Below are positions 4,832 to 37,799 of a stretch of 41,549 bases of DNA, piece after piece; the first letter of the stretch is position 1; each line of letters starts with the position of its first letter. The stretch comes from a bacterium (GTDB lineage Bacteria; Krumholzibacteriota; Krumholzibacteriia; G020349025), in NCBI GenBank assembly GCA_031362565.1, contig JANLSU010000019.1, positions 1 to 41,549 of the forward strand, read 5' to 3'. The notes under the pieces were generated by a model. It saw nothing but the letters and a program-made list of their open reading frames with translations, had not been told where the DNA came from and searched no databases. The translations under genes and the position numbers were made by a program.

Positions 4832-6517
4832 TCATCTCGCGCCCAGGTGCGAACCGACGGCCGCCAGCGCGGCCTTGCGCGCCGCCTCGAATTCGTCGCC
4901 CGGGTTCCATTGCGGCAACGCAGTCGTCTGCGCGACCGACAGGCCGCACATGAATCCGACCCGCGAATCCTCGACCGCGCCTTCCAGGTTCCAGGTCGCG
5001 GTCATTTGATCGCTCGGTTGGTGGTAGCTGACGGCTTCCCACTTTTCCTGCTGCTCCTTACCCCAACCGGCGGGCTTGCCCAGCACTTCGACTCCGGTGT
5101 CGAAGTACAACGCCGGCACACCGATGCGCGCAAAATTGAATTGATCCGAGCGATAGAAGTGGCCGCGGTCGGGAAACTGGTCCGGCACTACGACACGGCC
5201 TTGCGTCGCGGCCGCCGCATCGGCCACCGCATCGAGCGACGATTTCCCTTTGCCGATCAGCACCAGATCGTGGGTGCGGCCCCAGATGCTGGCGCCGTCG
5301 TAGTTGATGTTGGCGGCGATCCGTCCCGGCTCGAAGGTCGGATGCTTCGAATAGAACTCCGAACCCAAGAGGCCCGACTCTTCAGTGCCGACTGCCGCGA
5401 ACAGAATCGAGCGCCGCGGCGGTTGCGGCAGCGCCTTGAAGGCGCGCGCGATGGCCAGCATTTGTGCCACGCCCGAGGCATTGTCGAGCGCGCCATTGTA
5501 GATCTTGTCGCCGGTCGAATCGGGCTCGCCCACACCCAGGTGATCGTGGTGCGCGGTGTAAACCACAACTTCGTTGGTGAGCTGCGGATCGCTGCCGCGG
5601 AGCAGGCCCAGCACATTGGCCGTAGCGCGCCGGCTGATGGTGTTCGGAAATTCGAACGTCGTCTGCACGCCAAGCGCCACCGGCTTGAAGGCCTTCGACT
5701 TGGCACTCTCCACCAGTTTGGCGAGATCGGCGCCGCCGAGATGCGCCAGCTTGCGTGCCGCTTCCTCGGTGATCCAGCCCTTCACCTGCATGCGCGGCTC
5801 GGGACCCGCCGGCAATTCGAACTGCTCGCCGGTCCACGAGCTCTGCACGACTTGCCACGGATAGCCCGCCGACGGCGTCGTGTGAATGACGATGGCTCCC
5901 ACCGCACCGTGCCGTGCCGCGTTCTCGTACTTGTAATCCCAGCGCCCGTAGTAGAGGCGCATGGTGCCCGCGAAGAGTTTGGGATCCCAGTCGGGGTCGT
6001 TGTTGACAAGCACGACGACCTTGCCCCGCACGTCCGTCTTGTAGTCGTCCCAACCGTATTCGGGTGCGGTCATACCGTAGCCGACGAAAACCACCTCGGC
6101 GTCGCGCAACGCAATGTGTTCTTTCTGCTCGGCGCCGACCGCAATGAACTCGTTCCAATAGGCCAGGTCGAGTCCGCCACTCTTGCCTTTGAAAGCCCAA
6201 GTCTTGGGCACTTGCGACGTAATGCCCACGATGTCGAACGGCTGCTGCCACTGGCCGCCGGGGGCGCCTGGCTCGAGGCCGAGTTGCTCCATGCAGCTCG
6301 CAATATAGGCGCGCGCCAATTCGTCGCCGCGCGTCGCCGCACCGCGCCCCTCGAGCAGGTCACTGGACAGGAAGCGCACCGTGCCGGCAATCGCACCGGT
6401 GGTGATTTGCTGGGCGGCAGGGTCCGCGCCGGCTGGAAGAGCGAGCGGTTGTGCGAGCGCGGCGGATGCAATGCACGCCGCGCCGGCAGCAATGACGATT
6501 CCTCGAGTGACCCACAT
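4832..6517 (-). CDS. Secreted M28-family aminopeptidase with PA domain
   Basis: Signal peptide (MWVTRG..SAALA); LSSDLLEGRG, YTAHHDHLG, NGALDNASG, EESGLLGS, RSDQFNF, YHQPSD. Confidence 0.92.
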   Translation of the reverse strand: MWVTRGIVIAAGAACIASAALAQPLALPAGADPAAQQITTGAIAGTVRFLSSDLLEGRGAATRGDELARAYIASCMEQLGLEPGAPGGQWQQPFDIVGITSQVPKTWAFKGKSGGLDLAYWNEFIAVGAEQKEHIALRDAEVVFVGYGMTAPEYGWDDYKTDVRGKVVVLVNNDPDWDPKLFAGTMRLYYGRWDYKYENAARHGAVGAIVIHTTPSAGYPWQVVQSSWTGEQFELPAGPEPRMQVKGWITEEAARKLAHLGGADLAKLVESAKSKAFKPVALGVQTTFEFPNTISRRATANVLGLLRGSDPQLTNEVVVYTAHHDHLGVGEPDSTGDKIYNGALDNASGVAQMLAIARAFKALPQPPRRSILFAAVGTEESGLLGSEFYSKHPTFEPGRIAANINYDGASIWGRTHDLVLIGKGKSSLDAVADAAAATQGRVVVPDQFPDRGHFYRSDQFNFARIGVPALYFDTGVEVLGKPAGWGKEQQEKWEAVSYHQPSDQMTATWNLEGAVEDSRVGFMCGLSVAQTTALPQWNPGDEFEAARKAALAAVGSHLGAR

Positions 6518-6646
6518 CGATTCGATTCCTTGGTGGCTTGAAGGTGATTCGTGGAAACCGGCCAAAAAAACTGTTGGCGCCGGGCACGAGCCCTTGGGGC
6601 GCCGGCGCAGTATAGTGGAGCCGCGATCACCGTGCATGCGTCGCGA

Positions 6647-8965
6647 TCACGCGCCCCGGGCGGGTTTGCGGCCTTGACCTGGGGCGGGGTCGCGGTACGG
6701 GGCGAGAAATAATGCGCCGAGCGGCGGCAGCGTCAACTCGATCGACTGCGCATGACCTTGGGCCGCAACCGGTGTCGAAGGAATGGTGCGGCGCTGGACC
6801 GTGCCGCTCCCCCCGTACTTCACGGCGTCGCTGTCCAGGAGCACGCGGTACGAACCGGCCTCCGGCACCCCCATGCGATACGCTTCCCATGGCACCGGCG
6901 TCCAGTTGATGGCGACGACCGCCAAGTCGCGGGGATCGATGCCGCGACGCAGAAAACACACCACACTGCGTGATTCATCCCGCGCCTCGATCCACTCGAA
7001 GCCGGCGGGTGCGAAATCCACCTCGTGAAGTGCCGGGGTGCGCTTGTACAACCGGTTCAGGTCGCGCGCGAAGGCCTGCAGCGCCGCGTGCCCCGGGTCC
7101 TGCAGCAACTCCCAATCGAGTTGCCGTTCGTGACTCCACTCGCGCTTCTGGCCGATCTCGCCGCCCATGAACAAGAGCTTTTTGCCGGGATGGGCGAACA
7201 TGTAACCGAGCAGCGCCCGCAACGTCGCGCGCTTCTTCCATTCGTCACCCGGCATCTTGCCCCACAGGGAGCGCTTGCCGTGCACTACTTCGTCGTGTGA
7301 CAGCGGCAAGATGAAATTCTCGCTGAAGGCGTACATGATCGAGAACGTGAGCTTGTTGTGGTGGTGCTTGCGCGCCAGCGGGTCTTCCTTGACATACTGC
7401 AGCGTGTCGTTCATCCAGCCCATGTTCCACTTGAGGTCGAACCCCAGGCCGCCTTTTGCCACCGGGCGCGACACGCCCGGCCAGGTCGTCGACTCTTCGG
7501 CGAACGTCAGTACGCCGGGCACTTGCTGGTGCACGAGTTCGTTGAAGCGGCGCACGAAAGCCACCGCCTCGAGATTCTCCGGGCCGCCGAGTACGTTCGG
7601 TTCCCACTCGCCGTCCTTGCGCGAGTAGTTGAGATAGAGCATCGACGCCACCGCGTCGACACGCATTCCGTCCAGGTGCATTTCCTCGAGCCAATAGAGG
7701 GCGCTCGAGAGCAGAAACTCGACCACTTGCTTGCAGCCGTAGTCGTAGATGAGCGTGCCCCAGTCCTGGTGCTCTCCTTTGCGCGGGTCGGCGTATTCGT
7801 AGAGATGGGTGCCGTCGAAGAATCCGAGGCCATGGCCATCGCGCGGGAAATGCGCCGGCACCCAGTCCAGGATGACGCCCAGGCCGGCGCGATGCGCCGC
7901 GTCCACGAAGAACTTGAAGTCTTCGGGCGTACCAAAGCGCGATGTCGGCGCGAAATAGCCGACGGTTTGATAGCCCCAGGAGCCATCGAGCGGGTGCTCG
8001 GTGATGGGCAGCAACTCGAGGTGCGTGTAGCCCATTCGCTTCGCGTAGGGCACCAGGGTCCGCGCCAGTTCGCGGTACGTCAACCAGCGCCCGGCGTCGG
8101 TGCGGCCGGTCTCGCGGCCGGCGGCTGCCCGGGCGCGCGCCGGCTTGCGAGTGGACGCCGCACTCTCCGCGTCCGGTGCGCGCATCCACGATCCGAGATG
8201 CACTTCGTAGATCGAAATCGGCGCGCTGGGGGCTTGGCGCGCGGTGCGCTCGCGCCGCCATTTGTCGTCATGCCAGCGGAATGGCCGGCGCCGGTCCCAA
8301 ACGATCGACGCGGTGTTCGGCCGCTGTTCCATGTAAAAACCGACCGGATCGGTGCGCACGCTGTTGGCGTTCTGGAGCCGGGTCTTGATGTGATACTTGT
8401 AGAGTTCACCGGACTCGAGGCCGGGAACGAACAACTCCCAGATGCCGCTCGTGCCGCGCAGGCGCATGGGATGCGCGCGCTCGTCCCAGCGGTTGAACCC
8501 ACCGATCACGCTGACACGTTTGGCGTTCGGCGCCCAGACCGCGAACGACACGCCGCGATGGCCCACATGCTTGATGACTTGCGCGCCGATCCGAGCGTGC
8601 AATTGATAGTGCGTGCCTTCCTGGAACAAGTGCAGGTCGAGATCACCCAGCACGGGCGGCAAGGCGTAGGGATCCTCGAAATGCTGCGCCGCGCCGTCCG
8701 CATACTTCGCCACCAGTGTGTACTCGAACGCGGTGTCGACGCCTGGGAAAACGACCTCGAAGAAACCCGCCGGGTGGACGCGTTTCATTGCATCTTCGGT
8801 GCGCCCACGCACGACGGACAACGAGCGGGCCCGCGGCACGAAGGCGCGAATAACCAGCACCGGCTGGCCCTCGACGCGCAGCACATGCGGACCCAAGACC
8901 TCGAAAGGCTGCCCGTGTTCGCCGGCAACGATCAGATCGACATCGAGCGATGCCGCCACATTCAC
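6647..8965 (-). CDS. glgB: 1,4-alpha-glucan (glycogen) branching enzyme, GH13
   Basis: FAVWAPNA, IYEVHLGSW, SWGYQ, LDWVPAHF, DGMRVDAVASM, AEESTTW, KWNMGWMND, LSHDEVVHGK. GTG start overlaps the upstream stop (GTGA). Confidence 0.95.
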   Translation of the reverse strand: MNVAASLDVDLIVAGEHGQPFEVLGPHVLRVEGQPVLVIRAFVPRARSLSVVRGRTEDAMKRVHPAGFFEVVFPGVDTAFEYTLVAKYADGAAQHFEDPYALPPVLGDLDLHLFQEGTHYQLHARIGAQVIKHVGHRGVSFAVWAPNAKRVSVIGGFNRWDERAHPMRLRGTSGIWELFVPGLESGELYKYHIKTRLQNANSVRTDPVGFYMEQRPNTASIVWDRRRPFRWHDDKWRRERTARQAPSAPISIYEVHLGSWMRAPDAESAASTRKPARARAAAGRETGRTDAGRWLTYRELARTLVPYAKRMGYTHLELLPITEHPLDGSWGYQTVGYFAPTSRFGTPEDFKFFVDAAHRAGLGVILDWVPAHFPRDGHGLGFFDGTHLYEYADPRKGEHQDWGTLIYDYGCKQVVEFLLSSALYWLEEMHLDGMRVDAVASMLYLNYSRKDGEWEPNVLGGPENLEAVAFVRRFNELVHQQVPGVLTFAEESTTWPGVSRPVAKGGLGFDLKWNMGWMNDTLQYVKEDPLARKHHHNKLTFSIMYAFSENFILPLSHDEVVHGKRSLWGKMPGDEWKKRATLRALLGYMFAHPGKKLLFMGGEIGQKREWSHERQLDWELLQDPGHAALQAFARDLNRLYKRTPALHEVDFAPAGFEWIEARDESRSVVCFLRRGIDPRDLAVVAINWTPVPWEAYRMGVPEAGSYRVLLDSDAVKYGGSGTVQRRTIPSTPVAAQGHAQSIELTLPPLGALFLAPYRDPAPGQGRKPARGA

Positions 8966-10179
8966 CCCGCGTACAACTGCAGGTCGGTACCGAAGCGATT
9001 GGCCATTTCGACCAAGGTATCCAGATCCGGGTGGCGCAGAACGAGCATGCCGTCGGAAATGAGCGTCGCCTTCCAGTCGCGGCGCTGGGCGCCGAGCGGC
9101 AACAGGTCCACGACACAGACGTGCTCGCCATACTCGGCCATGAGCTGTCCCAGTCCCTCGATCCGCTTGATCCGGCCCTGGCCCTGGGCGCGTTTGAAGA
9201 TCGAACAACAGTTGTATTTGCGTTCGACGCGCTGCGACAGCGTGCCGTGGCAGACGGCCTCGGCCCAGCCCTTGAACAAATCGATATCGCTCGCGAAGTT
9301 CATGATGTCGACGGTGCGCGCCCCGGGCGGCCGGGCGCCGATTTCGCCGAAGACAACTTCGCCATCGGCCTTGCGGTACCACTCCATATGTGTGAACCCG
9401 TCGCGGAAATTCATGGCGCGTAGCACGGCTTCGCCCATGGCACGGCCACCTGCCAGATCGGCGGCGTCGGGATTGCGCAACGCCACCGTGGTCGGACTGA
9501 TCCACTCGAGCGACTTCGACACCAGCGGCCGTGGCCGGTACCAACAGATGTTGTAGAAGAGCATCTTGCCGTTGGCGCACACCGTATCGAACGTGAACTC
9601 TTCCCCGTCGACGAATTCCTCGACACTGACATTGTCCACGTGGCGCAGGCGCGGCATCACCGCGTCGAATTCCTGTTGATTCTGCAATCGGTAGGTGTCC
9701 GCGGAGCCGGCGCCGTCGATCGGTTTGACGATGACGGGAAAGCCGATGCGCTCGGCCGCCACCCGGCACTCGTCGATGCTCGTGCACTTGTAGTGCTTGG
9801 GGGTCCGAATGCCGGCTGCGTCCAGCACCTGTTTCATGATTTCCTTGTCGCGAAACGGAATGGTTTCGGCGACGGTCATCCCGGGCAGGCCCAGCGTCTC
9901 GCGCAGCTTGGCCGCCAGCACCATCATCGGTTCCCACAGGCATTCGACGCGGTCGATGCGAATGCGTTTCGCGAGATCACGGACTTGCGCGATGATGGCG
10001 TCCTCGTCGCTGAAGGACCGGACCTGCAGGTAGTACGCGAGACTGTCGCGCACCTGTGGCGCGAGGCCGCTCTCCGGTTGGTCGCCGACGCCTATGACCC
10101 GCACATCGACGGCAGCCAGACCGCGGGTGAAAAGCGGCATTTCCGGCGGATATCCCGGGGAAATCATCAGAACGTGCAT
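8962..10179 (-). CDS. ATP-grasp ligase (L-amino-acid-ligase-like), paralog A
   Basis: FRDKEIMK, GFPVIVKPIDGAGS, EEFVDGEE, THMEW, FGEIGARPPG. Confidence 0.9.
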   Translation of the reverse strand: MHVLMISPGYPPEMPLFTRGLAAVDVRVIGVGDQPESGLAPQVRDSLAYYLQVRSFSDEDAIIAQVRDLAKRIRIDRVECLWEPMMVLAAKLRETLGLPGMTVAETIPFRDKEIMKQVLDAAGIRTPKHYKCTSIDECRVAAERIGFPVIVKPIDGAGSADTYRLQNQQEFDAVMPRLRHVDNVSVEEFVDGEEFTFDTVCANGKMLFYNICWYRPRPLVSKSLEWISPTTVALRNPDAADLAGGRAMGEAVLRAMNFRDGFTHMEWYRKADGEVVFGEIGARPPGARTVDIMNFASDIDLFKGWAEAVCHGTLSQRVERKYNCCSIFKRAQGQGRIKRIEGLGQLMAEYGEHVCVVDLLPLGAQRRDWKATLISDGMLVLRHPDLDTLVEMANRFGTDLQLYAG

Positions 10180-10207
10180 CGCGTCTCCAATGCGTCGCGG
10201 GCCTGGG

Positions 10208-11428
10208 TCAGGCCAGTTCGACTCGAATGATGCTCACGATCCGCTTCAATGCGTCTTCGACGACTTGCGTGTCGGGATGGCGCACGATCACATAACCATC
10301 GCCATCGTACGTCCCCGATGGCGTTTGACCGGCACGCGGCAGCTTCGCCTCGACGACGAGCGGCGCGACTTCGCGCTGCGCCCGGTCGAGGCCGGTGATG
10401 CCAACGACGCGGCCCTGGCCTTGGCCGCGTAGGAATGCGGCGCCGGCCGCGTAACGCCGCTCGGGCGGCCGGAATTCGTCGTGCACCATGAGATGCGCCC
10501 ACGCTTTGTACATGTCGATGTCGTGGGCGTACGACATGAGCGTCGTGAACTGCGCCCCCGGGGGCCGCGCCCCGACTTCGGAAATCGCCACACTGCCGTC
10601 ACGGCGGCGAAACCATTCCATGTGGCTCAAGCCGGTGCGCATGCCGAGCACCTGCAAGGCATGCGTCGCAGCATGCCGAATGGGCTCGAACTCGGGGCCG
10701 TCGATCTCGCGCGGCAGGACTACGACCCACTGGATCCACGGATTTTCCAAGACCTCGAGCGGGGTCGGGAAGTAGCGCGAGATGGAATGCCACACCATGC
10801 GCCCATCGACGAAGACGCTGTCGAAGGAGTGTTCTTGGCCGCGGATGAACTCTTCCAGGAGCACTGGGCTGTGCGGCGAGGGCGGCAGCGTCGAGAGCCC
10901 CTGGCTGAGCGCCGTGTAGTCGTCGACGCGAAACGTATTGCGCGATCCGGCGCCGTCCGGCGGCTTGATCACCAGCGGATAGCCGATCTCGGCGGCGAAG
11001 GCGAAGGCCTCCGGTACGGTGGCGACCAGGCGGTGCCGTGCGCAGGGGACATCGTGGCTCCGAAGCACGTTCTTCATGCGAGCTTTGTCACGGAAGTTCT
11101 GCGCTGCTTCGACGCCGAGGCCGTCGATTCCAAGTGCCTCACGCACCTGCGCCAGCGGCACCTGCAGTTGTTCGAGTGTTCCAAGCAGGCGATGCACCGG
11201 GCCGAGACGCGCCGCAAGGGTGCGCACCGCAGCCGCGATCTGCGCCGGGTCGAGACCATCCGCGACGCGCTCGTGCGCCACCAGCTTGGCCCGCAGGCCC
11301 GCCGGCAATTTCGAATCGGGATCTTGGCTGACGAGCGCCAGCCGCGTATCCACGACATCGGCGGCCGCTTCCACGAATCGCAAGGTCGCGTCCATGAAAA
11401 ACGGGGCGACGAAGACGACGTTTGGCAT
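10208..11428 (-). CDS. ATP-grasp ligase, paralog B
   Basis: FRDKARMK, GYPLVIKPPDGAGS, EEFIRGQE, SHMEW, SEVGARPPG; start MPNVVFVAPFF. Confidence 0.9.
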   Translation of the reverse strand: MPNVVFVAPFFMDATLRFVEAAADVVDTRLALVSQDPDSKLPAGLRAKLVAHERVADGLDPAQIAAAVRTLAARLGPVHRLLGTLEQLQVPLAQVREALGIDGLGVEAAQNFRDKARMKNVLRSHDVPCARHRLVATVPEAFAFAAEIGYPLVIKPPDGAGSRNTFRVDDYTALSQGLSTLPPSPHSPVLLEEFIRGQEHSFDSVFVDGRMVWHSISRYFPTPLEVLENPWIQWVVVLPREIDGPEFEPIRHAATHALQVLGMRTGLSHMEWFRRRDGSVAISEVGARPPGAQFTTLMSYAHDIDMYKAWAHLMVHDEFRPPERRYAAGAAFLRGQGQGRVVGITGLDRAQREVAPLVVEAKLPRAGQTPSGTYDGDGYVIVRHPDTQVVEDALKRIVSIIRVELA

Positions 11429-11538
11429 GGTGTCGAGTCTAGCCGCGCCCGCCGACCGATGACAAGGCACCCCAGGGGACACGCCGGCAAAGTCGTGGTA
11501 AAGTCGGCGTGTTCTCCTCTCCCACATGGAGACTCGCC
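11429..11538. promoter_or_regulatory. Divergent promoter region of the ATP-grasp cluster
   Basis: Minus strand: TTGTCA(11465-11460)-N18-TAGACT(11441-11436), 7 nt before ATG 11428. Plus strand: TGGTAAAGT extended -10-like (11496-11504), flanked by the 8-bp inverted repeat ACACGCCG(11479-11486)/CGGCGTGT(11505-11512); GGAGA RBS before ATG 11539. Confidence 0.55.
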
Positions 11539-12762
11539 ATGAACATCATTCTCATCGAGCCCTGTTTTCCGGCCAACCAGCGGCAGTTCGCACGCGGCCT
11601 GGCGGAAGCCGGCGCCACGGTCATCGGCATCGGGGAGTCCTCGAAGGCGGCCCTCGGCAACGATTTGAGCCGTTGGCTGACGCACTACGAACAAATCGGC
11701 TCGGTGTGCGACGAGGCGGCGCTGCTCGAGAAGGTGCGCTGGATTCAGGGGCAAACCCGGGTCGATCGTCTGGAGTCGACGATCGAAGCCCATCAGATGC
11801 CGGCAGCGCGCGTGCGCGAGGCGTGCGACATTCCAGGCACTTCGGTCAAGACAACCTTTCTCTGCCGCGACAAACCGGCGATGAAGGAGGCGCTGCGAGC
11901 TGCCGGTGTTCCCTGCGCCCAGTCCACCGGAGCTGCGAGCGGCGACGAGGTGCGCGCCTTCGTGAAGCAGGCCGGCTACCCGGTCATCTTAAAACCACGC
12001 GATGGGGCCGGCGCTTCCGGCACGGTGCGCGCCGATGATGCGGCACAGTTGGAGCAGGCGATCGAAGCAACGCATGTCGACCGTGGCGCGTCCATCGCCG
12101 TCGAGGAGTTCATCGAAGGGCACGAGGGCTTCTACGACACCCTGACCATCGGCGGCGAGGTCGCGATGGAGTTCGCGACGCACTACTATCCCAACGTTCT
12201 CGAAGCGATGCGCACGCGCTGGATCTCGCCGCAGTTCATCAGCACCAATCGCATCGACGATGCGCCGGCCTACGCCGAGGTCAAGGCCATGGGGCGCAAG
12301 GTCATCGAGGCGCTCGGCATCGACACCTCCGCGACCCATATGGAATGGTTCTTCGGTCCCAAGGGACTCAAGTTTTCCGAAATCGGCTGCCGGCCGCCCG
12401 GAGTGCGCGCCTGGGACCTGTACAACGCCGGCAACGACATCGATCTGTACCGCGAGTGGGCGAATGCGGTCGCGTACGGGCGCGTCGAACACCGCCCGTC
12501 GCGGCGTTTTTCCGCCGGCATCATCGCGTTACGGCCGGATCGTGACGGCCGCATCGCGCGCTACGAAGGTGTCGACGTCATCGAGAGCCGCTTCGGCCAG
12601 TGGATCATCGACGCGCACCTGCCCGATGCCGGCACGCCGACCCAAGGCGTCGAAGCCGGATACATGGCGAACGCCTGGGTCCGCATGCGCCATCCCGACT
12701 ACGACGAACTGCAATCCATGCTCGACACCGTCGGCCGCACGGTGAAAGTGCGGGCGGAATGA
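11539..12762 (+). CDS. ATP-grasp ligase, paralog C
   Basis: CRDKPAMK, GYPVILKPRDGAGA, EEFIEGHE, THMEW, FSEIGCRPPG. Confidence 0.9.
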   Translation: MNIILIEPCFPANQRQFARGLAEAGATVIGIGESSKAALGNDLSRWLTHYEQIGSVCDEAALLEKVRWIQGQTRVDRLESTIEAHQMPAARVREACDIPGTSVKTTFLCRDKPAMKEALRAAGVPCAQSTGAASGDEVRAFVKQAGYPVILKPRDGAGASGTVRADDAAQLEQAIEATHVDRGASIAVEEFIEGHEGFYDTLTIGGEVAMEFATHYYPNVLEAMRTRWISPQFISTNRIDDAPAYAEVKAMGRKVIEALGIDTSATHMEWFFGPKGLKFSEIGCRPPGVRAWDLYNAGNDIDLYREWANAVAYGRVEHRPSRRFSAGIIALRPDRDGRIARYEGVDVIESRFGQWIIDAHLPDAGTPTQGVEAGYMANAWVRMRHPDYDELQSMLDTVGRTVKVRAE

Positions 12763-13778
12763 CGGCAGAGTCGCAGCGTTCCGGCCGCAGCGCACCGCGC
12801 GGCGGCCGTTCGAGCCCCAAGTCGAGCCCCGGCCACGGCACGGTGGCTGCGACGCGCGTTACCTTGCTCGGGCCGCAGCGCCTGCAGCCGACGCTGCGCC
12901 CGGCGCTCGACGCCATGGGCGCCCAGGGACCCGTCGCGACGATTACGGCAGGCTGGCAAGAGCGCGAGTCCGACGATCACGAACTGCACGAGCATCTCGA
13001 ACGCCGCTCGATCAACTTGGCGCTGTACCTGCGCGCCGAACGGGCGTTTTCGCGCGACCCGGAATTGACCAAAGCGCACAGCTTGCGCCAGTCGCGGCTG
13101 CGTGAATCGCAGGACCTCTACAACGTCCGGCTCGACCACGCCATGGCCACGGCCTACGAATTGCTGCGCCGCCCCGGCGACTCCGACTTGCTGCGGGAGG
13201 CGCGTGCTGCTGCCATCGATACGATTCGTGACATCGATGCGCGGCATCTGCAGCGGGTCGCCGCCATCCACACCGAGTTTGAAGAACAGTGGCACCCCGC
13301 GGAGCGCGATTCCATCGGCCGTGAACGGCGCGAGATCGAATCCATCTTGCGTGACACGGCCGCGGTGGCGATTGCCGGTGGCCATGTGGCCATTCTGCTC
13401 AACCGGCTGCGGTTGTTCGGATTTGGAGCCTTGTTGCAAGACCGCACCGTCGCCGCATGGTCGGCAGGCGCCATGGCAATCGCCGATCGGGTCGTCGTCT
13501 TTCACGACCAGCCGGCACATGGCATGGGCAATGCCGAGGTGCTCGAAGTCGGGCTCGGGCTCGCACCCGGCATCGTGCCGTTGCCGCATGCGCGGCATCG
13601 CCTGAACCTGGAGGATCAAGCGCGAGTCGGGTTGTTTGCGGCGCGTTTCGCGCCCGCCGTCTGCGTGCCCATGAACGAGGGGGCGCGCGTCGGCGTTGGC
13701 GGCACGGGCTGGCTGGGTGCGCCCGACATGCAACGCCTGCTGCCGGATGGGCGCGTCGGCGAGTTGGAGAGTGCATGA
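12759..13778 (+). CDS. Peptidase S51-like (cyanophycinase/PepE, class I GATase-like fold) protein
   Basis: ITAGW, AIAGGH, nucleophile elbow AWSAGAM, GLGL..LPHA, downstream MNEG; ATGA overlap with the upstream gene. Confidence 0.72.
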   Translation: MTAESQRSGRSAPRGGRSSPKSSPGHGTVAATRVTLLGPQRLQPTLRPALDAMGAQGPVATITAGWQERESDDHELHEHLERRSINLALYLRAERAFSRDPELTKAHSLRQSRLRESQDLYNVRLDHAMATAYELLRRPGDSDLLREARAAAIDTIRDIDARHLQRVAAIHTEFEEQWHPAERDSIGRERREIESILRDTAAVAIAGGHVAILLNRLRLFGFGALLQDRTVAAWSAGAMAIADRVVVFHDQPAHGMGNAEVLEVGLGLAPGIVPLPHARHRLNLEDQARVGLFAARFAPAVCVPMNEGARVGVGGTGWLGAPDMQRLLPDGRVGELESA

Positions 13779-14938
13779 GATCCCACGTGCAAGATCTTCA
13801 CGCCGGCCTCGCCATTGCGACGCTCTTGCAGCAGCAACCGCCGGATCCGGCGGCTCTCGACGCGTTCGTCAGCAGCCATTCCTTCCCGCTCGTCGAAGGC
13901 ACGCGCGTCACGTTCGTTTTTCGCGGCCAGGCCGACACCGTGCAACTGCGCCATTTCATCTTCGGATTGCCGTCCATCCAAGCCTTCACGCGCGTCGGCA
14001 GCACCGATTTTTGGTACTTGGTGCTGGAGATCCCGGCCAACTCGCGCTTCGAGTACAAGATCGAAGTGGTGCGCGACGGCACCGGTCATTGGATCGAAGA
14101 TCCGCTCAATCCCAACAAGACGGCTGACCCGTTCGGCAACAACTCGGTGTGCCGCACGAGCGGCTACGTACTGCCGGACTGGACGCAGCCCGATCCCGAA
14201 GCCCGCGCCGGCACCCTCGACGAACTGCGCCTTGCGAGTCGCTCGTTGCACCGCGAGACGCGCGTCACGATGTATCTGCCGGCGCGCTTCCGGCGCACCC
14301 GGCGTTATCCGCTCTTGCTCGTGCACGACGGCGCCGACTATCTGAATTACGCCGGCATGAAGACGGTGCTCGACAACCTCATTCACCGGCTCGATGTCTC
14401 GGAGCTGGTTGCGGCGTTCTTGCACCCGCACGACCGGCTCGGCGAATACGCCAACAGCGCCGACCACGCGCGCTTCCTGACCCACGAACTCGTGCCGGAG
14501 CTCGAGAAGCGTTTGCCGTTGCTCGGCGCGCCCGAGGGACGCTGCATGATGGGCGCGAGTTTTGGTGCCGTGGCGTCGCTTGCGGCGGCGTATCAAGACC
14601 CGGGGTTCTATGGCCGTCTGCTCTTGCAGAGCGGCTCGTTCGCCTTCACCGATATCGGCCCGCAGAAGCGCGGCCCGGTGTTCGAGCCGGTGGTGGAATT
14701 CGTCAATGCCTTCCGCGCCCAGCCGCTCAAGGTGTCGGAACGCGTCTTTTTGAGTTGCGGCACGTACGAGTCGCTCATCTATGAGAACCGTTCGCTGGTT
14801 CCGCTCCTGCAATCGACCGGAATGGAAGTGCGCTACGTCGAAAGCCGCGACGGACACAACTGGGAGAACTGGCGGGACCGCCTCCGGGACGGCCTGTCGT
14901 GGCTCCTTCCGGGACCGCTCTGGATGGTGTATGAATAG
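13775..14938 (+). CDS. Fes-like alpha/beta-hydrolase esterase with N-terminal E-set/CBM48-like domain
   Basis: N-terminal VTFVFRG..W..RFEYKIEV..WIEDPLNP; catalytic MYLP..YPLLLVHDG, GASFG, GHNWENW; ATGA overlap. Confidence 0.85.
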   Translation: MRSHVQDLHAGLAIATLLQQQPPDPAALDAFVSSHSFPLVEGTRVTFVFRGQADTVQLRHFIFGLPSIQAFTRVGSTDFWYLVLEIPANSRFEYKIEVVRDGTGHWIEDPLNPNKTADPFGNNSVCRTSGYVLPDWTQPDPEARAGTLDELRLASRSLHRETRVTMYLPARFRRTRRYPLLLVHDGADYLNYAGMKTVLDNLIHRLDVSELVAAFLHPHDRLGEYANSADHARFLTHELVPELEKRLPLLGAPEGRCMMGASFGAVASLAAAYQDPGFYGRLLLQSGSFAFTDIGPQKRGPVFEPVVEFVNAFRAQPLKVSERVFLSCGTYESLIYENRSLVPLLQSTGMEVRYVESRDGHNWENWRDRLRDGLSWLLPGPLWMVYE

Positions 14939-15022
14939 AGGGTCCCAGCCATTCCCGACACCTTGGCCCGTGGCCCCCTGCCAGTGGACCATCGGCAGAT
15001 TTTCGAAAGGAACCGCGACCCC

Positions 15023-16468
15023 ATGGCGAATGTCACTCGCAGGATCGGCCTCTCGTTAGGCGCCGACATCTGCTGGCCCATCTGTTACGAGGAGATCCTG
15101 AAGCGGCTCGACCTGGCGATTCCCGCCGGCCGCGACACCGTGCGCTTCGAGATGGATCGCATCACGATCGAGCCCTTCGACCTGCGCCAGCCCTGCAAGT
15201 ACGACGTCGTCCTCGACCGGTTGACGCATTGGTATCACACGAGCCGCGAGTGGATCAAAAAGGCCGTCATCATGGATGGCCTGTACGTGCTCAACAATCC
15301 GTGGTCGGTGCAATCCATGGAGAAGCACACGTCCTATTGCGCCATGATGCACTTGGGGATGCCGATCCCGGCAACCTGGATGCTGCCGCCCAAACGTTAC
15401 GAGCAACTGCCCGATCTGCAGGTGACGCTCGACCGCTACGCCCAACTCTTCGATTTGAAGGCGATCGGTGACACCGTCGGCTACCCGCAGTTCATGAAAC
15501 CGTACGACGGCGGCGCCTGGGCCGGGGTCACGAAGATCGACAATGAATGGGCCTTGAAGGGCGCCTACGACCAGAGCGGCACGCGCGTCATGCACTTGCA
15601 GAAGGCCGTCGACCCCTACGATCTCTTCGTGCGCTGCATCGGGCTCGGACCGCAGACGTATTGCGTCAAATACGACCCGTCGGCGCCGCTCCACAGCCGC
15701 TACACCATGGACCGCGGGTTCTTGTCGGCCGCCGACGAGAAGTTGATGCGCGATATGACGCTGGTCATCAACACGTTCTTCGGCTGGGACTTCAATTCGT
15801 GTGAGGCGCTGCGCCAAGGCGATACCTGGGTGCCGATCGACTTCGCGAATCCGTGCCCGGATTCGCAGGTGACGTCGCTGCACTACCACTTCCCGTGGCT
15901 CGTCAAGGCGAACCTGCGCTGGTCGCTCTTCTGCGCCGCGACCAAGCGCCCGATGCGCATGAATCTCGACTGGGCGCCATACTACGAGATCGCCGCGAAG
16001 GACTGGGCCTATCCGGAGAAGCTCGCGGCGTATGCCAAGATCGCCCATGAGCGCCTGGATACCGAGCGCTTCGAAGAGTTCTGCGCCAAGCACCTTGGCC
16101 ATCTGGACGAGGTGACGTGGGAGTTCTTCGCCAGCGACCGCGCTATCGACGCGGTGCGCCAGAAGGTGACGGCGCTCTATCCGGCGCACGAGGTCGAGTC
16201 GTTCACGACGTTGTTCTGGAACCGCATCCAACACTGGCGCGAACGCGAAGCGCCCGCCGGCAAGGTGGCGCCAAAGACCGCGGATCCGGCACCCGCACCG
16301 GTGGCCGTTGCGCCGGCACTGAAGCCGGTCGAAGCCAAGCTCGCGCCGTCCAAGCCGGCGAAGGCAACGGCCGCACCGAAGCCCAGCGTCGCTGCGACAC
16401 GTCCCGCCGCTCAAAAGACCAAACCCAAGTCCACGAAGCCCGCTGCGGGCGACCGGGCGCAGGGGTGA
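15023..16468 (+). CDS. Divergent RimK/glutathione-synthetase-like ATP-grasp protein with Pro/Ala/Lys-rich tail
   Basis: VLNNPW..EK, GMPIPATWMLP, GYPQFMKPYDGGAWAGV, IDFANPCPD; low-complexity C-terminal tail. Confidence 0.78.
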   Translation: MANVTRRIGLSLGADICWPICYEEILKRLDLAIPAGRDTVRFEMDRITIEPFDLRQPCKYDVVLDRLTHWYHTSREWIKKAVIMDGLYVLNNPWSVQSMEKHTSYCAMMHLGMPIPATWMLPPKRYEQLPDLQVTLDRYAQLFDLKAIGDTVGYPQFMKPYDGGAWAGVTKIDNEWALKGAYDQSGTRVMHLQKAVDPYDLFVRCIGLGPQTYCVKYDPSAPLHSRYTMDRGFLSAADEKLMRDMTLVINTFFGWDFNSCEALRQGDTWVPIDFANPCPDSQVTSLHYHFPWLVKANLRWSLFCAATKRPMRMNLDWAPYYEIAAKDWAYPEKLAAYAKIAHERLDTERFEEFCAKHLGHLDEVTWEFFASDRAIDAVRQKVTALYPAHEVESFTTLFWNRIQHWREREAPAGKVAPKTADPAPAPVAVAPALKPVEAKLAPSKPAKATAAPKPSVAATRPAAQKTKPKSTKPAAGDRAQG

Positions 16469-16475
16469 CGCGGGC

Positions 16476-17219
16476 ATGTCCAAGATCACCACGAAATGGT
16501 ATTCGGAGCGTTTGAAGCAAGAAGTGCAGGTCGTGCGCTGGGGCGACGTGGGAACACCCTTGCTGTTGTTTCCAACCGCCGGCGGCGACGCCGAGGAAAT
16601 CGAACGCTTTCTGATGATCGATGCACTGGCGCCCCTGCTCGAAGCGCAACGCATCAAAGTCTATTCGTGTGACAGCATCGCCGGCAAGGCGTGGATCCAG
16701 AGCGAAGGCGATGACCGCCATCGCGGCCGCATGCAGAATCAGTTTCATGAATTCGTGTATCGCGAAATCGCGCCGGCAATTCGCATGGACTGCAAGAATC
16801 CCGGGATCGAGGTCATCGCGGCTGGTGCATCGATCGGCGCCTACAACGCGCTCGCTGTCACCTGCCGCTATCCGGATGTGTTTCGCGCCGCCATTTGCAT
16901 GTCCGGGACGTACAACCTCGAGCGCTTCATCGACGCCGAGAAGACGATGGATTTCTACTATGCGTCGCCGCTGCACTTCCTGGGTGATCTGCAGGGGACG
17001 CAGTTGGAGGCGCTCCAGAAGCGCTACATCCTATTGGCGTCGGGCCAGGGCCGCGCCGAGGATATCGACGAATCCTGGCGGATCGCTCATCTGCTAGGCT
17101 TGAAGGGTGTCCCCAACCGGGTCGACCCGTGGAGCGCCGAATGGCACCACGATTGGCCGACGTGGCGCCGCATGCTGCCACAGTACGTGGATGAGCTGGC
17201 GCCCAAGGCGGATGCATAG
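16476..17219 (+). CDS. Esterase-family alpha/beta-hydrolase
   Basis: GTPLLLFPTAGG, GASIGAY nucleophile elbow, MSGTY, HDWPTWRRML. Confidence 0.87.
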   Translation: MSKITTKWYSERLKQEVQVVRWGDVGTPLLLFPTAGGDAEEIERFLMIDALAPLLEAQRIKVYSCDSIAGKAWIQSEGDDRHRGRMQNQFHEFVYREIAPAIRMDCKNPGIEVIAAGASIGAYNALAVTCRYPDVFRAAICMSGTYNLERFIDAEKTMDFYYASPLHFLGDLQGTQLEALQKRYILLASGQGRAEDIDESWRIAHLLGLKGVPNRVDPWSAEWHHDWPTWRRMLPQYVDELAPKADA

Positions 17220-17270
17220 CCGGCGACGTGTGAGACCACCAAGAGCGAGCGGGCTCGAAGGAAGGCGCGC

Positions 17271-19193
17271 ATGAAAACCGACGCCATCGACGGTGAGTTC
17301 AGCGGCCAAGAACGCCGGTCGTTCATGCGCTACTTGCTGCGCGATCTGCGGGCCCTCGAGCGCATGCTCGGCAACAACATGCTCGAAGAGGGTGTGCGAC
17401 GCATCGGCGCCGAGCAGGAACTCTTCCTGATCGACCGCGCCTGCCATCCGGCACCGGTGGCCCACGAAATGCTGCAGGCGCTCGGCGATCCGCACTTCAC
17501 CACCGAGCTCGGGCGTTTCAATCTCGAAATGAACCTCGACCCGCTGGCCTACGGCGGCAGTTGCCTGCGCCAGATGGAAACCCAGCTCGACACGCTCGTC
17601 GACAAACTGTGCCGCACCGCGGACAGCATGGGTTATGGCGCCGTTCTGACCGGGATCTTGCCGACCATTCGCAAGTCCGATCTCAAGATCGAGAACATGA
17701 CGCAGAGTCCGCGCTATGCGGCACTGAATGCCGCCATGACCCAGTTGCGCGGCGGCGCCTATGATTTTTACATCAAGGGTATCGACGAGCTGTCGCTGCG
17801 GCATGATTCCGTCATGGCAGAAGCTTGCAATGCGAGCTTCCAAGTCCATTTTCAGGTCGGCGCGGGCGAATTCGCGACGCTCTACAACATGGCGCAGGCG
17901 GTCGCGGGGCCGGTCTTGGCGGCGGCCACCAATTCGCCGCTGCTTTTCGGGCGGCGCTTGTGGGCCGAGACGCGCATCGCGCTCTTCCAGCAGGCCGTCG
18001 ATACACGCAAACCACACGAGTACCAACGCCAGTCCAACCCGCGCGTCTTCTTCGGCAATGGTTGGGTCAAGAACTCGGTCCTCGAACTCTACAAAGAGGA
18101 CGTGACGCGGTTTCGCACGCTGGTCGGCATTCCGGCCGACGAAGACCCGATGGCCAAGCTGGATGCGGGCGAAGTGCCGCAGCTCAAGGCGCTCCGCCTG
18201 CACAACGGCACGGTGTATCGCTGGAATCGCGCCTGCTACGGCATCACCGACGGGAAGCCGCACTTGCGGATCGAATGCCGCGTGCTGCCTTCCGGCCCGA
18301 GCGTGCTCGACGAGGTCGCGAACGCCGCCTTCTGGTTCGGGCTCATGGGGATTTTGGCGCGCAAGTACGACGACATTACCGAGGTCATGGAGTTCAAGGA
18401 CGCGGAGAACAATGTGCTGCAGGCCGCGCGGCTCGGATTGAGCGCCAACATGGTGTGGCTGGAAGGCGAGGAAATGTCGGCGCAAAAGCTCATTTTGGAG
18501 CGCCTGCTGCCGATGGCTGACGAGGGCCTTTCGATCCGGGGCATCGACGATGCGGATCGCAAGCGCTATCTGGGCATCATCGCCGAGCGCGTGAAAACCA
18601 ACAAAACCGGCTCGCGCTGGCTGTTGAATTCGCTGCATGGCATGAAGGACCACGGCACGGCCGGCGAACGCTTCACGGCGCTCACCGCCGCCACCATCCT
18701 GCGGCAGAAGAGCGGCAAGCCGGTGCACGAGTGGGACCTGGCCCAGATCGAGGAATCCGGCGGCTGGCTGCAGAACTACATCAAGGTCGAGCAGTACATG
18801 GATACCGACGTGCACACCGTGTACCCGGATGAATCCGTCGACCTCGTTGCAAACTTGATGGAGTGGGAGCACATCCGTTACGTTCCGGTCGAAGACATGG
18901 ACCGCAAGCTGGTCGGCCTCGTGTCGCAGCGCGGCTTGCTGCGTCTTTTGGCGCAAGGCAAGATCGGCCAGGACACCTCGATCGCGGATGTCATGCGGAA
19001 GATGACGGATTTGATCACGATCAACCCGGAAACGACCACGCTCGCCGCCATCGGCCTCATGCGCCAGCGCAAAATCGGCTGCTTGCCGGTCGTGCACGAG
19101 GGCCGTCTCATCGGCGTCGTGACCGAGCGCGACTTCATGGATATCGCCTACGAACTGCTCGAGCAAAAACTGCAAGGAAAACCCACTACATGA
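17271..19193 (+). CDS. Glutamate-cysteine ligase family 2 (GCS2-like carboxylate-amine ligase) with C-terminal CBS pair
   Basis: IGAEQELFL, TTELGRFNLE, SFQVHFQV, NSPLLFG..ETRI, HNGTVYRWNR, HLRIECRVLP; CBS motifs IRYVPVED..LVGLVS and IGCLPVV..LIGVVTERDF. Confidence 0.85.
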   Translation: MKTDAIDGEFSGQERRSFMRYLLRDLRALERMLGNNMLEEGVRRIGAEQELFLIDRACHPAPVAHEMLQALGDPHFTTELGRFNLEMNLDPLAYGGSCLRQMETQLDTLVDKLCRTADSMGYGAVLTGILPTIRKSDLKIENMTQSPRYAALNAAMTQLRGGAYDFYIKGIDELSLRHDSVMAEACNASFQVHFQVGAGEFATLYNMAQAVAGPVLAAATNSPLLFGRRLWAETRIALFQQAVDTRKPHEYQRQSNPRVFFGNGWVKNSVLELYKEDVTRFRTLVGIPADEDPMAKLDAGEVPQLKALRLHNGTVYRWNRACYGITDGKPHLRIECRVLPSGPSVLDEVANAAFWFGLMGILARKYDDITEVMEFKDAENNVLQAARLGLSANMVWLEGEEMSAQKLILERLLPMADEGLSIRGIDDADRKRYLGIIAERVKTNKTGSRWLLNSLHGMKDHGTAGERFTALTAATILRQKSGKPVHEWDLAQIEESGGWLQNYIKVEQYMDTDVHTVYPDESVDLVANLMEWEHIRYVPVEDMDRKLVGLVSQRGLLRLLAQGKIGQDTSIADVMRKMTDLITINPETTTLAAIGLMRQRKIGCLPVVHEGRLIGVVTERDFMDIAYELLEQKLQGKPTT

Positions 19194-20164
19194 GCCGGCT
19201 GCGGGAACGCATGCTGGCCGAGGGGCCGCTGGAGCGCGTCATCGGGGCGTTCCGCGGCGCCGAGCCTGGCCCGTCGCTGCTCGTCGTCGCCGGCATTCAC
19301 GGCAACGAACCGGCAGGCGTGATCGCCGCGCGGCGCGTCGTTGCGACTCTCGAACGCGAACGGCTACCGCTGCGCGGTGACTTCGCCATTTTCACCGGCA
19401 ACATCGGCGCCCTGCGCGACGGCGTACGTGGCCTGCGGCGCGATCTGAATCGCGGCTGGACGCGCCAGAATCTGCTGGCGCTTTCCCCCAACGGTTCGGC
19501 GGCGCCCGAGGATCACGAGCAGCGCGAACTCTTCGACGCCATCGAAGCGGCGCGCCACCGGGCCCGCGGTCCGGTTACATTCCTCGATCTGCACTCGACA
19601 TCGGCGCCCGGCACACCGTTCGTCATGGTGCGCGATATCCCCGAGCTACGGGCCTTCGCGCTACTCTTCCACATTCCGGTCATCATGGGACTCCTGGAGC
19701 TCATCGATCACACCTTGCTCGAGTTCCTGCAGAGCGAGGGCTGCACGACACTCGGCATCGAGGGAGGGCATAACGACGCCGATTCGACCATCGACCACCA
19801 TGAGGAGGCCTTGTGGATCGCGCTCGTCGGTGCGGGCCTGCTCGATGCCACGAACTTGCCAGGGTTGGAGCGCTCGAAGCAGCTCCTGGCCGCCGCGCGC
19901 GGCAGCCGCCCGCACATGACGCGCATCGAACGCCGGCACTCGATCAAGCCCGAAGATCGTTTCCGGATGATCGACGGCTTCGACAACATTCAACGCGTCG
20001 ACTCCGGCCAATTGCTTGCCCACGATCGCAACGGCGAGATTCGCGCCCCGCATCCATGCATCCTGCTGATGCCGCTTTACCAAGAGCAAGGCGACGACGG
20101 GTTTTTCCTCGGGCATGAAGTGGTTGCGCCGCACCCACCCACGGCCCACAGGCGCGCCGGCTGA
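19190..20164 (+). CDS. Succinylglutamate desuccinylase/aspartoacylase (AstE/AspA, M14-like) family protein
   Basis: GIHGNE, DLNRGW, LDLHS, GIEGG; ATGA overlap with the GCS2 gene. Confidence 0.87.
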   Translation: MSRLRERMLAEGPLERVIGAFRGAEPGPSLLVVAGIHGNEPAGVIAARRVVATLERERLPLRGDFAIFTGNIGALRDGVRGLRRDLNRGWTRQNLLALSPNGSAAPEDHEQRELFDAIEAARHRARGPVTFLDLHSTSAPGTPFVMVRDIPELRAFALLFHIPVIMGLLELIDHTLLEFLQSEGCTTLGIEGGHNDADSTIDHHEEALWIALVGAGLLDATNLPGLERSKQLLAAARGSRPHMTRIERRHSIKPEDRFRMIDGFDNIQRVDSGQLLAHDRNGEIRAPHPCILLMPLYQEQGDDGFFLGHEVVAPHPPTAHRRAG

Positions 20165-29568: not shown

Positions 29569-29735
29569 GCGGGCTCCACGGGGTGTGGGACATCGGGATG
29601 TTCCTTATAAGGGTACCACATTTTGTGGGGCGCCGCCCCACGCGCCCTCGCGGGCAGGCTTCCGCCGGCGCTCCGGGCGCCGCCGGGACGCGTCCATTGC
29701 GGCCTCCGGCGGGCGCCGATTCGACCCGCTCGGGT

Positions 29736-30650: not shown

Positions 30651-30764
30651 TGCTTCGACTCCTCGGATGGGTGCGGTGCGAATCTACACGAAACCCAGGT
30701 GGCGGCGGACGCGTAGACTGGGGCTGCGCCGCGTCGGGGACCCCGAAGGTCTCGGAGATGGAGG

Positions 30765-37771: not shown

Positions 37772-37799
37772 AGTGCCAACAGTGCCGCGTGGAGGCTCA

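Follow-up and report, generated by a model that had tools for sequence, protein, structure and literature searches.

Why does a bacterium encode a set of ATP-dependent ligases and hydrolases against its only gene for glycogen branching enzyme? Bacterial glycogen is treated as a plain glucose polymer with a textbook enzyme set. The question is raised by a contig from the Krumholzibacteriota (GenBank JANLSU010000019.1, assembly GCA_031362565.1), which was analysed over its entire 41.5 kb (41,549 nucleotides, referred to as the window) and belongs to a genome assembly of 5.4 Mb with 65% GC. At positions 6647–20164 of the window, two divergent operons lying 110 bp apart encode four ATP-grasp enzymes (the paralogs grA, grB and grC, and a fourth enzyme of another kind), one GCS2 ligase, four hydrolases and GlgB. 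This arrangement is far beyond chance, because the same genes in the same order recur in dozens of loci across many phyla. The genes form a module that is real, strongly non-random and apparently undescribed, and its link to glycogen metabolism is supported by the gene neighbourhoods described below.

Recurrence of the module beside glycogen genes

One genome per species was scanned for relatives of the fourth ATP-grasp enzyme, giving 358 stretches. The best 80 were kept, with at most 10 kb on each side, and two loci from the window's own class were added to make 82. Loci were mapped by tblastn with the window proteins, and taxonomy was taken from the record titles. The 80 loci came from Acidobacteriota, Planctomycetota, Gemmatimonadota, Gamma-, Alpha- and Deltaproteobacteria, Acidimicrobiia, Eisenbacteria and others. 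Across the 82 loci the fixed core consists of a Fes-like esterase, the fourth ligase and a small esterase (est2). An S51-like peptidase gene and grC usually precede this core, and grB–grA lie a few kb away.

Genes for alpha-glucan metabolism were then counted by tblastn with nine query proteins (the GlgA, GlgC, GH77, GlgP, GlgX-like and GH57 families plus the window GlgB). At least one alpha-glucan gene was present in 37 of the 82 loci. When the count was limited to the 47 full-context loci, which have at least 8 kb on both sides, 27 had an alpha-glucan gene within about 10 kb, while the same panel matched 2.0% of 21.2-kb stretches of the window's own genome. The association was concentrated in loci with grA or grB, where 24 of 25 full-context loci had an alpha-glucan gene, against 3 of the 22 without either ligase; the loci are phylogenetically related, so that none of these counts represents independent trials. 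The sequence-only reading of this DNA had named, as the result that would tell against it, that such clusters rarely lie near alpha-glucan genes. This was not seen, and the glucan genes are often interleaved with the ligases. The glucan linkage belongs to the extended form of the module, with the S51-like gene, grA and grB, and not to the esterase–ligase–esterase core.

Seven glucan enzyme families were identified near the module by Pfam scans of recurrent neighbours: GlgA, GlgC, GlgB, GH77, GlgP, a GlgX-like protein (GH13 with CBM48) and GH57. A recurrent open reading frame (ORF) of about 490 residues, located between the small esterase and grB–grA or between grA and grC, is GlgA (Glyco_transf_5 and GT1 domains), and its neighbour is GlgC. 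In most cases the glucan gene beside the module is glgA, alone or together with glgC (33 loci), rather than glgB, and the coupling to glgB seen in this window is a local variant. The partners vary by lineage, with GH77 in gammaproteobacterial and some acidobacterial loci, GlgB and GlgP in Gemmatimonadota, and GlgA or GlgC widely. That the partner genes differ between lineages argues that the association with glucan genes arose repeatedly or has been maintained. In the three genomes tested (G041, G042 and G043), the glgA in the cluster is the only PF08323 (GT5) match in the genome.

Five genomes in which grA or grB is not within 10 kb of the core were also checked (G044, G046, G047, G048 and G049). 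In G047, glgA–glgC lie directly beside grB–grA, on another contig than the core. In G044, grA is 6.5 kb from glgA, and glgC–glgA are located between grB and grC, on the same contig as the core and, by contig coordinates, about 1.27 Mb from it. G048 has no close grA, its best match being 31% identical. The remaining two are considered with the points against our preferred reading. A separate observation from G044 is that grB and grC (locus L087, 7226–9529 and 16163–17386) are in several broken pieces beside the intact glgC–glgA, which points to assembly-error frameshifts or decaying genes.

Within the window's phylum the fourth-ligase family is rare. Searching with the window protein recovered it in 3 of 41 relatives, and a query with a distant homolog (E ≤ 1e-20) recovered it in 3 of 208 genomes, the window's own genome being counted in both cases. 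This rarity, together with about 60–70% identity across phyla, suggests horizontal spread. Two genomes of the same class carry related layouts. In G021, est2, the ligase, the esterase, the S51-like gene, grC and glgA are on one strand, grB–grA is divergent, and glgB is convergent after grA. In G036 the order is AstE, GCS2-CBS, est2, ligase, esterase, S51-like gene, grC and glgA, with grB–grA about 6 kb further on. These layouts are likely to be the older form, and the window is therefore read as a variant whose cluster has lost glgA and gained the translational coupling of glgB to grA. The GCS2-CBS gene has orthologs in 7 of the 82 loci and in G036, and the AstE/AspA gene in 2 of the 82 (L005 and L007) and in G036. 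The earlier description of five ligases and four hydrolases coupled to glgB therefore holds for this window, as a local variant only.

The loci from two classes are smaller. Alphaproteobacterial loci contain a stand-alone GCS2 gene, the esterase, the ligase, the small esterase and grC; those of Acidimicrobiia contain the esterase, the ligase and the small esterase only. One carrier of the minimal core is a Rhodobacteraceae isolate (L074). Several loci have individual additions. Two acidobacterial loci have a sensor kinase of about 1,025 residues inserted between the Fes-like esterase and the ligase (L010, 6875–9955; L020, 6864–9941); its Reg_prop, Y_Y_Y and HATPase domains were identified with Pfam on the L010 ORF, and the L020 ORF was matched to it by position and length. 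In L010, grC is followed by a sulfotransferase and four GT4 glycosyltransferases. A HAMP hybrid histidine kinase and a TPR protein lie downstream of grA, with no glucan gene following, in L085 (3186–6792) and L086 (7152–10909), and this pair may be a lineage-specific regulator of the module. Peptidase genes occur at the edges of other loci: a gamma-glutamyltranspeptidase after est2 (L081, 12022–13854, minus strand), an M14 carboxypeptidase after GH77 (L006, 19080–20165, plus strand) and, in gammaproteobacterial loci, an M32 carboxypeptidase (L040, 444–2021, minus strand).

The window and its gene products

Genes were called by Pfam and NCBIfam scans of long ORFs and by inspection of start codons, and the gene content given in the sequence-only reading was recovered in this way. 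Positions are collected in the table.

Features of the cluster and its edge in the window
Feature	Position	Strand	Basis
M28 (PA-domain) metallopeptidase	4832..6637	-	Pfam Peptidase_M28 7e-41
glgB, 1,4-alpha-glucan branching enzyme	6647..8965	-	NCBIfam equivalog PRK05402 and Pfam
grA, L-amino-acid-ligase-type ATP-grasp	8962..10179	-	Pfam ATP-grasp_4 7e-10, ATPgrasp_N
grB, L-amino-acid-ligase-type ATP-grasp paralog	10208..11428	-	ATP-grasp_4 1.6e-8, LAL_C2 8.4e-4
Divergent intergenic region grB/grC, 110 bp, presumed shared promoter region	11429..11538	.	coordinates
grC, third L-amino-acid-ligase-type ATP-grasp paralog	11539..12762	+	Pfam ATP-grasp 4.4e-9, CPSase_L_D2
S51-like serine peptidase (cyanophycinase / dipeptidase-E type)	12759..13778	+	Peptidase_S51 below cut-off, motifs
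Fes-like serine esterase (PF00756), N-terminal E-set-like domain	13775..14938	+	Pfam Esterase 4.9e-20, 72.8 bits
Codons of conserved C-terminal tail PGPLWMVYE, Fes-like esterase	14909..14935	+	homolog C-termini
Fourth ATP-grasp enzyme ('unk'), 481 aa	15023..16468	+	predicted fold; without Pfam family
est2, small alpha/beta-hydrolase esterase	16476..17219	+	Pfam Esterase 1.3e-7
GCS2-type carboxylate-amine ligase fused to CBS-domain pair	17271..19193	+	Pfam GCS2, CBS
AstE/AspA-family zinc deacylase	19190..20164	+	Pfam AstE_AspA_cat 3.4e-15

The genes are closely packed, with gaps of at most 110 nt apart from the overlaps. The four-nucleotide overlaps claimed earlier were all found in the coordinates: the GTG start of glgB overlaps the grA stop as GTGA, and ATGA overlaps occur three times in the right operon (12759–12762, 13775–13778 and 19190–19193), so that the S51-like gene has one at each end. 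No cluster protein has a hydrophobic N-terminus, the maximum 12-residue hydropathy being at most 1.9 compared with 2.66 in a neighbouring FG-GAP protein, in agreement with the earlier statement that obvious signal peptides are lacking. The M28 gene begins 9 nt downstream of glgB on the same strand and is possibly the last gene of the left operon (grB–grA–glgB–M28); tblastn found no M28 homolog in the 82 related loci, so that it is specific to this window.

GlgB belongs to its named family without ambiguity (PRK05402, 981.5 bits against an equivalog cut-off of 741) and has all four Pfam domains, GlgB_N, CBM_48, the GH13 alpha-amylase catalytic domain and the C-terminal domain. It is encoded by the only glgB of the genome, the single tblastn match, and this sole glgB is, judging from the overlap of the reading frames, translationally coupled to grA. 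The glgA, glgC (two copies), glgP and GH57 genes of this genome are on four other contigs.

The three ligase paralogs resemble L-amino-acid ligases at a distance. The nearest solved sequences to grA are RizA (4wd3, 9e-17) and BL00235 (3vot, 1.1e-14), and grA and grB are 34% identical. Among loci, grA orthologs are 55–66% identical and grC orthologs 58–70%; the grB start at 11428 agrees with full-length ortholog coverage. LAL_C2 is matched by grB alone, at 20 bits against a cut-off of 29.4, and the BacD and DdaF equivalog scores of all three are far below cut-off. All three also have weak matches, of about 1e-10 to 1e-11, to the ATP-grasp part of cyanophycin synthetase.

The fourth ligase had no Pfam or NCBIfam match at E 0.01, and when the threshold was relaxed to E ≤ 10 the sole match was Dala_Dala_lig_C at 0.11. 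Its structure was therefore modelled with AlphaFold2 on a 50-sequence alignment of near and distant homologs (A1), which gave a predicted local distance difference test score (pLDDT) of 88.3 and a predicted template-modelling score of 0.84 for residues 1–410, compared with a pLDDT of 34.9 for a single-sequence model. In the alignment-based model a RimK/ArgX/LysX-like fold is followed by a helical C-terminal domain, and residues 411–481 are predicted to be disordered. The best Foldseek matches in the PDB were VanA, ArgX, Ddl, LysX and RimK, at E of about 1e-10. VIA-align against 48,161 chains gave Z scores of 20.2 for RimK (root-mean-square deviation 3.0, 265 aligned residues), 19.5 for ArgX and 18.5 for LysX/ArgX, among other rows for synapsin (18.9), PurK (18.4), ITPK1 (18.3), VanA (17.9) and PPIP5K2 (17.8). 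The model thus supports an ATP-grasp enzyme with a predicted fold closest to RimK, LysX and ArgX. The earlier label 'RimK-like ATP-grasp' accordingly stands for the predicted fold and finds no counterpart in Pfam. In A1 the nearly invariant residues are K101, K159, E261, D273 and N276, which would fit an active ATP-grasp site; ATP and Mg ligand roles were assigned to them by analogy.

The family is large. Homologs are 58–88% identical across phyla, and 5,878 relatives were found at E ≤ 0.001 among the 8,000 candidates scored, with 1,294 relatives at the same threshold among 50%-identity representatives. The best 120 homologs (64–88% identical) are all unnamed or called 'hypothetical protein', and one of them has a precomputed Pfam domain (PF07478). 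Pfam found no fused domains in the longer homologs (P0180, P0143, P0126, P0155, P0232, P0170, P0149 and P0147), and the candidate esterase–ligase fusion P0219 was rejected, its upstream esterase fragment looking like a read-through gene call. At two loci, L018 and L043, the fourth ligase (68–69% identical) is without its usual partners in range, the range being 10 kb upstream and, downstream, 3.7 kb for L018 and 10 kb for L043; the ligase can therefore stand apart from the esterases.

The hydrolases were assigned from a mixture of domain matches and motifs. The S51-like protein scores 20.1 bits for Peptidase_S51 (PF03575), below the gathering cut-off of 23.9; however, an Atlas search found PF03575 in 27 of its 30 nearest clusters. 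At least 90% of 50 homologs keep GGH (207–209), WSAGA (234–238) and H277, and we take the serine of WSAGA and the histidine to be catalytic by analogy. The protein has an extra N-terminal helical half, and phmmer against PDB sequences gave nothing at E ≤ 1. For est2 there are weak Peptidase_S9 and PHB-depolymerase matches, and its orthologs are 48–70% identical among loci. The GCS2-CBS protein scores 26.7 bits for GCS2 (cut-off 21) and 3.5e-25 for CBS, and the AstE/AspA protein matches the succinylglutamate desuccinylase 1yw6 in the PDB at 2.3e-6.

The Fes-like esterase scores 95.3 bits for the NCBIfam enterochelin esterase PRK10439, below the equivalog cut-off of 222. Its PDB matches include 2b20 (4.7e-10), ferulic acid esterases and 6ne9, whose molecule name is 'Isoamylase protein'. 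Across 29 aligned homologs (alignment A2), neither the nucleophile motif GASFG (S262) nor H361 varies. The N-terminal domain matches Enterochelin_N (9.4e-4) and CBM_20 (0.1) below the Pfam cut-offs, and hhalign against the CBM48 of GlgB gave a probability of 8.2% over 87 columns, with a template of only four GlgB sequences. The sequence-only reading had called this esterase CBM48-like, a label that amounts to a weak E-set resemblance.

The esterase of the window ends in PGPLWMVYE, and a YE end is present in 55 of 69 homologs. This is the unbiased figure, as A2 was made of YE-ending sequences only and Y386 and E387 are invariant in it by construction. The YE tail and the S51-like gene go together: 49 of the 55 YE-tailed esterases have an S51-like gene in the locus, the other six being in loci cut close to the gene, while 12 of the 14 tail-less esterases have none. 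The remaining two tail-less proteins are L032, with a divergent 405-residue end that looks frameshifted, and L077, which ends in VYD. No conserved tail was found at the C-termini of GlgA, GlgC, grA, grB, grC or est2. When a complex of the Fes-like esterase with residues 1–415 of the fourth ligase was predicted in the presence of ATP and Mg, the score was 0.00, which counts neither for nor against an interaction.

Directly past the cluster, several genes probably encode secreted or surface proteins. First come two FG-GAP repeat paralogs with 37% identity and a C-terminal FlgD_ig domain, at 20288–23143 and 23182–26013 (plus strand). They are followed by a PLD-like/LTD protein with Por_Secre_tail, a type IX secretion sorting domain, at 26257–29604 (minus strand), and another protein ending in FlgD_ig is encoded at 37671–39653 (plus strand). 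A ROK-family kinase at 29736–30683 (minus strand), possibly a glucokinase, lies about 10 kb from the cluster and was rejected as a member of the module, being too distant and too unconserved in other loci. The contig breaks off within an integrase core domain fragment (rve_3; 41100–41549, minus strand), and a mobile element may be the reason for the break.

What the module may build

The reading that we prefer, tentatively and as a possible one, is that the glycogen granule reversibly holds a short amino-acid or peptide unit, attached to glucan hydroxyls or to the C-terminal Glu of the esterase. The region would then be this genome's form of a conserved 'write and erase' module that works in the cytoplasm with the glycogen machinery. 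The ligases would convert amino-acid carboxylates, probably of the Asp/Glu type, to acyl-phosphates and from these assemble the unit. An ester or isopeptide bond would attach this unit to its anchor in the granule, which would be either hydroxyl groups on the branched alpha-glucan or the conserved glutamate at the C-terminus of the E-set-bearing Fes-like esterase. Removal and recycling of the unit would fall to the four hydrolases (both serine esterases, the S51-like peptidase and the AstE-like deacylase), and the CBS pair on the GCS2 ligase might tie the process to adenylate (energy) status. ATP-grasp and GCS2 enzymes activate carboxylates as acyl-phosphates, and it is on this established chemistry that the activation step is based. 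The Asp/Glu-type residues are suggested by the known specificities of S51 and AstE/AspA enzymes, and at least one ester bond by the two conserved PF00756 serine esterases together with the presence of VanA among the fold neighbours of the fourth ligase. Ligation to the tail is attractive because the nearest folds of that ligase act on protein C-terminal glutamates. A more specific form, already proposed in the sequence-only reading, in which glycogen itself would be covalently and reversibly ester-decorated with amino acids or short peptides ('amino-acylated glycogen'), strikes us as rather unlikely; here the ATP-grasp and GCS2 enzymes would write, and the E-set esterase, the second esterase, the S51-like and the AstE-like enzymes would erase.

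Several observations weigh against anchoring in the granule. The core has no nearby glucan gene in any of the alphaproteobacterial and acidimicrobial loci examined, its neighbours there being unrelated to glucan metabolism and varying by locus, and the three-gene core therefore needs no linked glycogen genes. In G046 and G049, grA, grB and grC are just outside the flank and no glucan gene was present in the stretches fetched. The linkage to sole glycogen genes could mean co-regulation only. The CBM48 resemblance of the esterase N-domain is statistically weak (8% with hhalign, and below the Pfam cut-offs). To our knowledge, every L-amino-acid ligase with a characterised activity uses free amino acids as substrates. 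The YE tail also cannot be a universal substrate of the fourth ligase, because the tail-less loci of Alphaproteobacteria and Acidimicrobiia keep a ligase that is 61–67% identical.

The nearness of grA, grB and grC to ligases joining free amino acids (RizA at 9e-17, BL00235) would fit a free companion reserve or oligopeptide, the other option of the sequence-only reading. This would be a cyanophycin-like second store, soluble or granular, unattached to glucan and only co-regulated with glycogen, whose polymer the hydrolases mobilise. This we regard as possible but doubtful. The weak matches to the ATP-grasp part of cyanophycin synthetase, the S51-like protein with its conserved Ser and His, and the AstE-like, M28, M14 and M32 peptidases in or beside some loci all agree with such a store. 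However, the two conserved serine esterases would have no role in a pure polyamide, there is no CphA-type architecture (Pfam finds no Mur-ligase-like domain in the cluster proteins), and co-regulation would not call for genes as closely intermixed with the sole glgA or glgB as those seen across phyla. The fold of the fourth ligase leads to another proposal, that the only product is a modified protein tail. Since RimK, ArgX and LysX/ArgX all act on protein C-terminal Glu, and the gene just upstream of the ligase encodes the conserved WMVYE-COOH tail, a RimK/LysX-type cycle could act on the esterase, with the tail as a LysW-like carrier or regulatory tag, the S51-like and AstE-like enzymes stripping the additions, and the glycogen genes as neighbours for regulation. 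The co-occurrence of tail and S51-like gene argues for this, as does the general knowledge that AstE/AspA enzymes cleave N-acyl-Asp/Glu bonds. The retention of a highly similar ligase in tail-less loci argues against it; moreover, the ligase matches no RimK/LysX family in Pfam or NCBIfam, the top fold row leads those of synapsin, PurK, ITPK1 and VanA by only about 2 Z or less, and the invariance of Y386 and E387 is built into A2. We consider tail modification alone improbable.

About equally improbable, in our view, is a small-molecule pathway making a glutathione-like thiol, a dipeptide osmolyte or another amide, with an indirect link to glycogen through carbon supply or a stress regulon. From general knowledge, GCS2 and ATP-grasp ligases parallel GshA and GshB, and PF00756 includes S-formylglutathione hydrolases. 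The stand-alone GCS2 gene preceding the core in Alphaproteobacteria, the gamma-glutamyltranspeptidase after est2 in L081 and the occurrence of the minimal core alone in two classes would also be accommodated. What such a pathway leaves unexplained is the 24 of 25 linkage of grA or grB to glucan genes, and the neighbours examined in the loci include no transporter, regulator or additional tailoring enzyme that accompanies the module consistently. Finally, the inositol-phosphate kinases among the fold neighbours (ITPK1 at Z 18.3 and PPIP5K2 at Z 17.8) would allow the fourth enzyme to be a sugar-hydroxyl kinase that phosphorylates glucan or sugar, rather than a ligase. This is very improbable, as the top fold rows are ligases and no phosphatase is among the partner hydrolases, which are serine carboxyl-esterases and peptidases.

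Under granule anchoring as under its competitors, 4–5 ATP-dependent ligases and 3–4 hydrolases are wired into the sole glycogen-synthesis or branching genes across many phyla, and hundreds of species carry the module. Its product would be a new piece of storage metabolism, whether the glucan is decorated, a peptide is anchored in the granule or a companion reserve is made. If amino-acylated glycogen is made, a single granule would store both carbon and nitrogen or would have tunable charge or accessibility. The fourth-ligase family, with thousands of unnamed proteins and no Pfam model, is an obvious target for enzyme discovery.

Comparison with known systems

The novelty check called for by the sequence-only reading found no characterised pathway of this kind. 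Iyer et al. 2009 is said to survey amidoligase neighbourhoods and may include related ones. In the parts of the literature accessible to us, no description of ATP-grasp ligases within glycogen operons was found, though the amidoligase survey may hold one, and no paper was found that combines glgA, glgC and ATP-grasp.

The cyanophycin system (CphA and the S51 enzyme CphB) is similar in pairing an ATP-grasp ligase with an S51-type peptidase in the cytoplasm, and in its reserve logic. The module differs by its four separate ligases and GCS2 enzyme, its two serine esterases and its setting among glycogen genes. CphA is an ATP-grasp domain fused to a Mur-ligase-like domain, about 900 residues in all. 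Identity of the ligases with CphA was rejected, the best score being about 42 bits against 850, in proteins of 405–481 residues with no Mur-ligase domain. RimK, LysX and ArgX, which act on S6 or LysW, share the fold of the fourth ligase, and the C-terminal Glu tail on the product of the neighbouring gene is a further likeness. Membership of the RimK/LysX sequence families was rejected, as neither NCBIfam nor Pfam gave a match; the module also has no small LysW-like carrier, and the tail is missing in some ligase-bearing loci. The L-amino-acid ligases RizA, BL00235, BacD/YwfE and DdaF are nearest in sequence to grA, grB and grC and have the same length and ATP-grasp layout. Known members are encoded in clusters for antibiotics or dipeptides and not, as here, among glycogen genes, and the scores of grA, grB and grC are far below the equivalog cut-offs.

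Fes/IroE and the CE1 feruloyl esterases share with the Fes-like protein a PF00756 catalytic domain and an N-terminal beta-domain, which in those enzymes carries an E-set/CBM48 annotation. The window protein differs in scoring below the equivalog cut-off, in its WMVYE tail, and in a context of glycogen genes instead of siderophore genes. A siderophore reading was rejected, since no non-ribosomal peptide synthetase, transporter or receptor genes are present. Similarly, a graspetide or omega-ester RiPP (ribosomally synthesised and post-translationally modified peptide) reading was rejected for lack of a precursor peptide. Small ORF families do not recur within the module, and the sets of 90–230-residue ORFs that are seen repeatedly run antisense to the esterase gene.

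The mycobacterial methylglucose lipopolysaccharide (MGLP) pathway, in which glycogen-type enzymes are joined by tailoring enzymes for the acylation of a cytoplasmic alpha-glucan, uses acyl-CoA acyltransferases and methyltransferases. Unlike MGLP, the window cluster and the neighbours scanned with Pfam contain no methyltransferase or acyl-CoA acyltransferase domains, and the activating enzymes of the module are ATP-grasp and GCS2 ligases instead. The MGLP locus (PMC4555173) nevertheless provides a precedent, in that an esterified cytoplasmic alpha-1,4-glucan is encoded there beside the genes that build the glucan.

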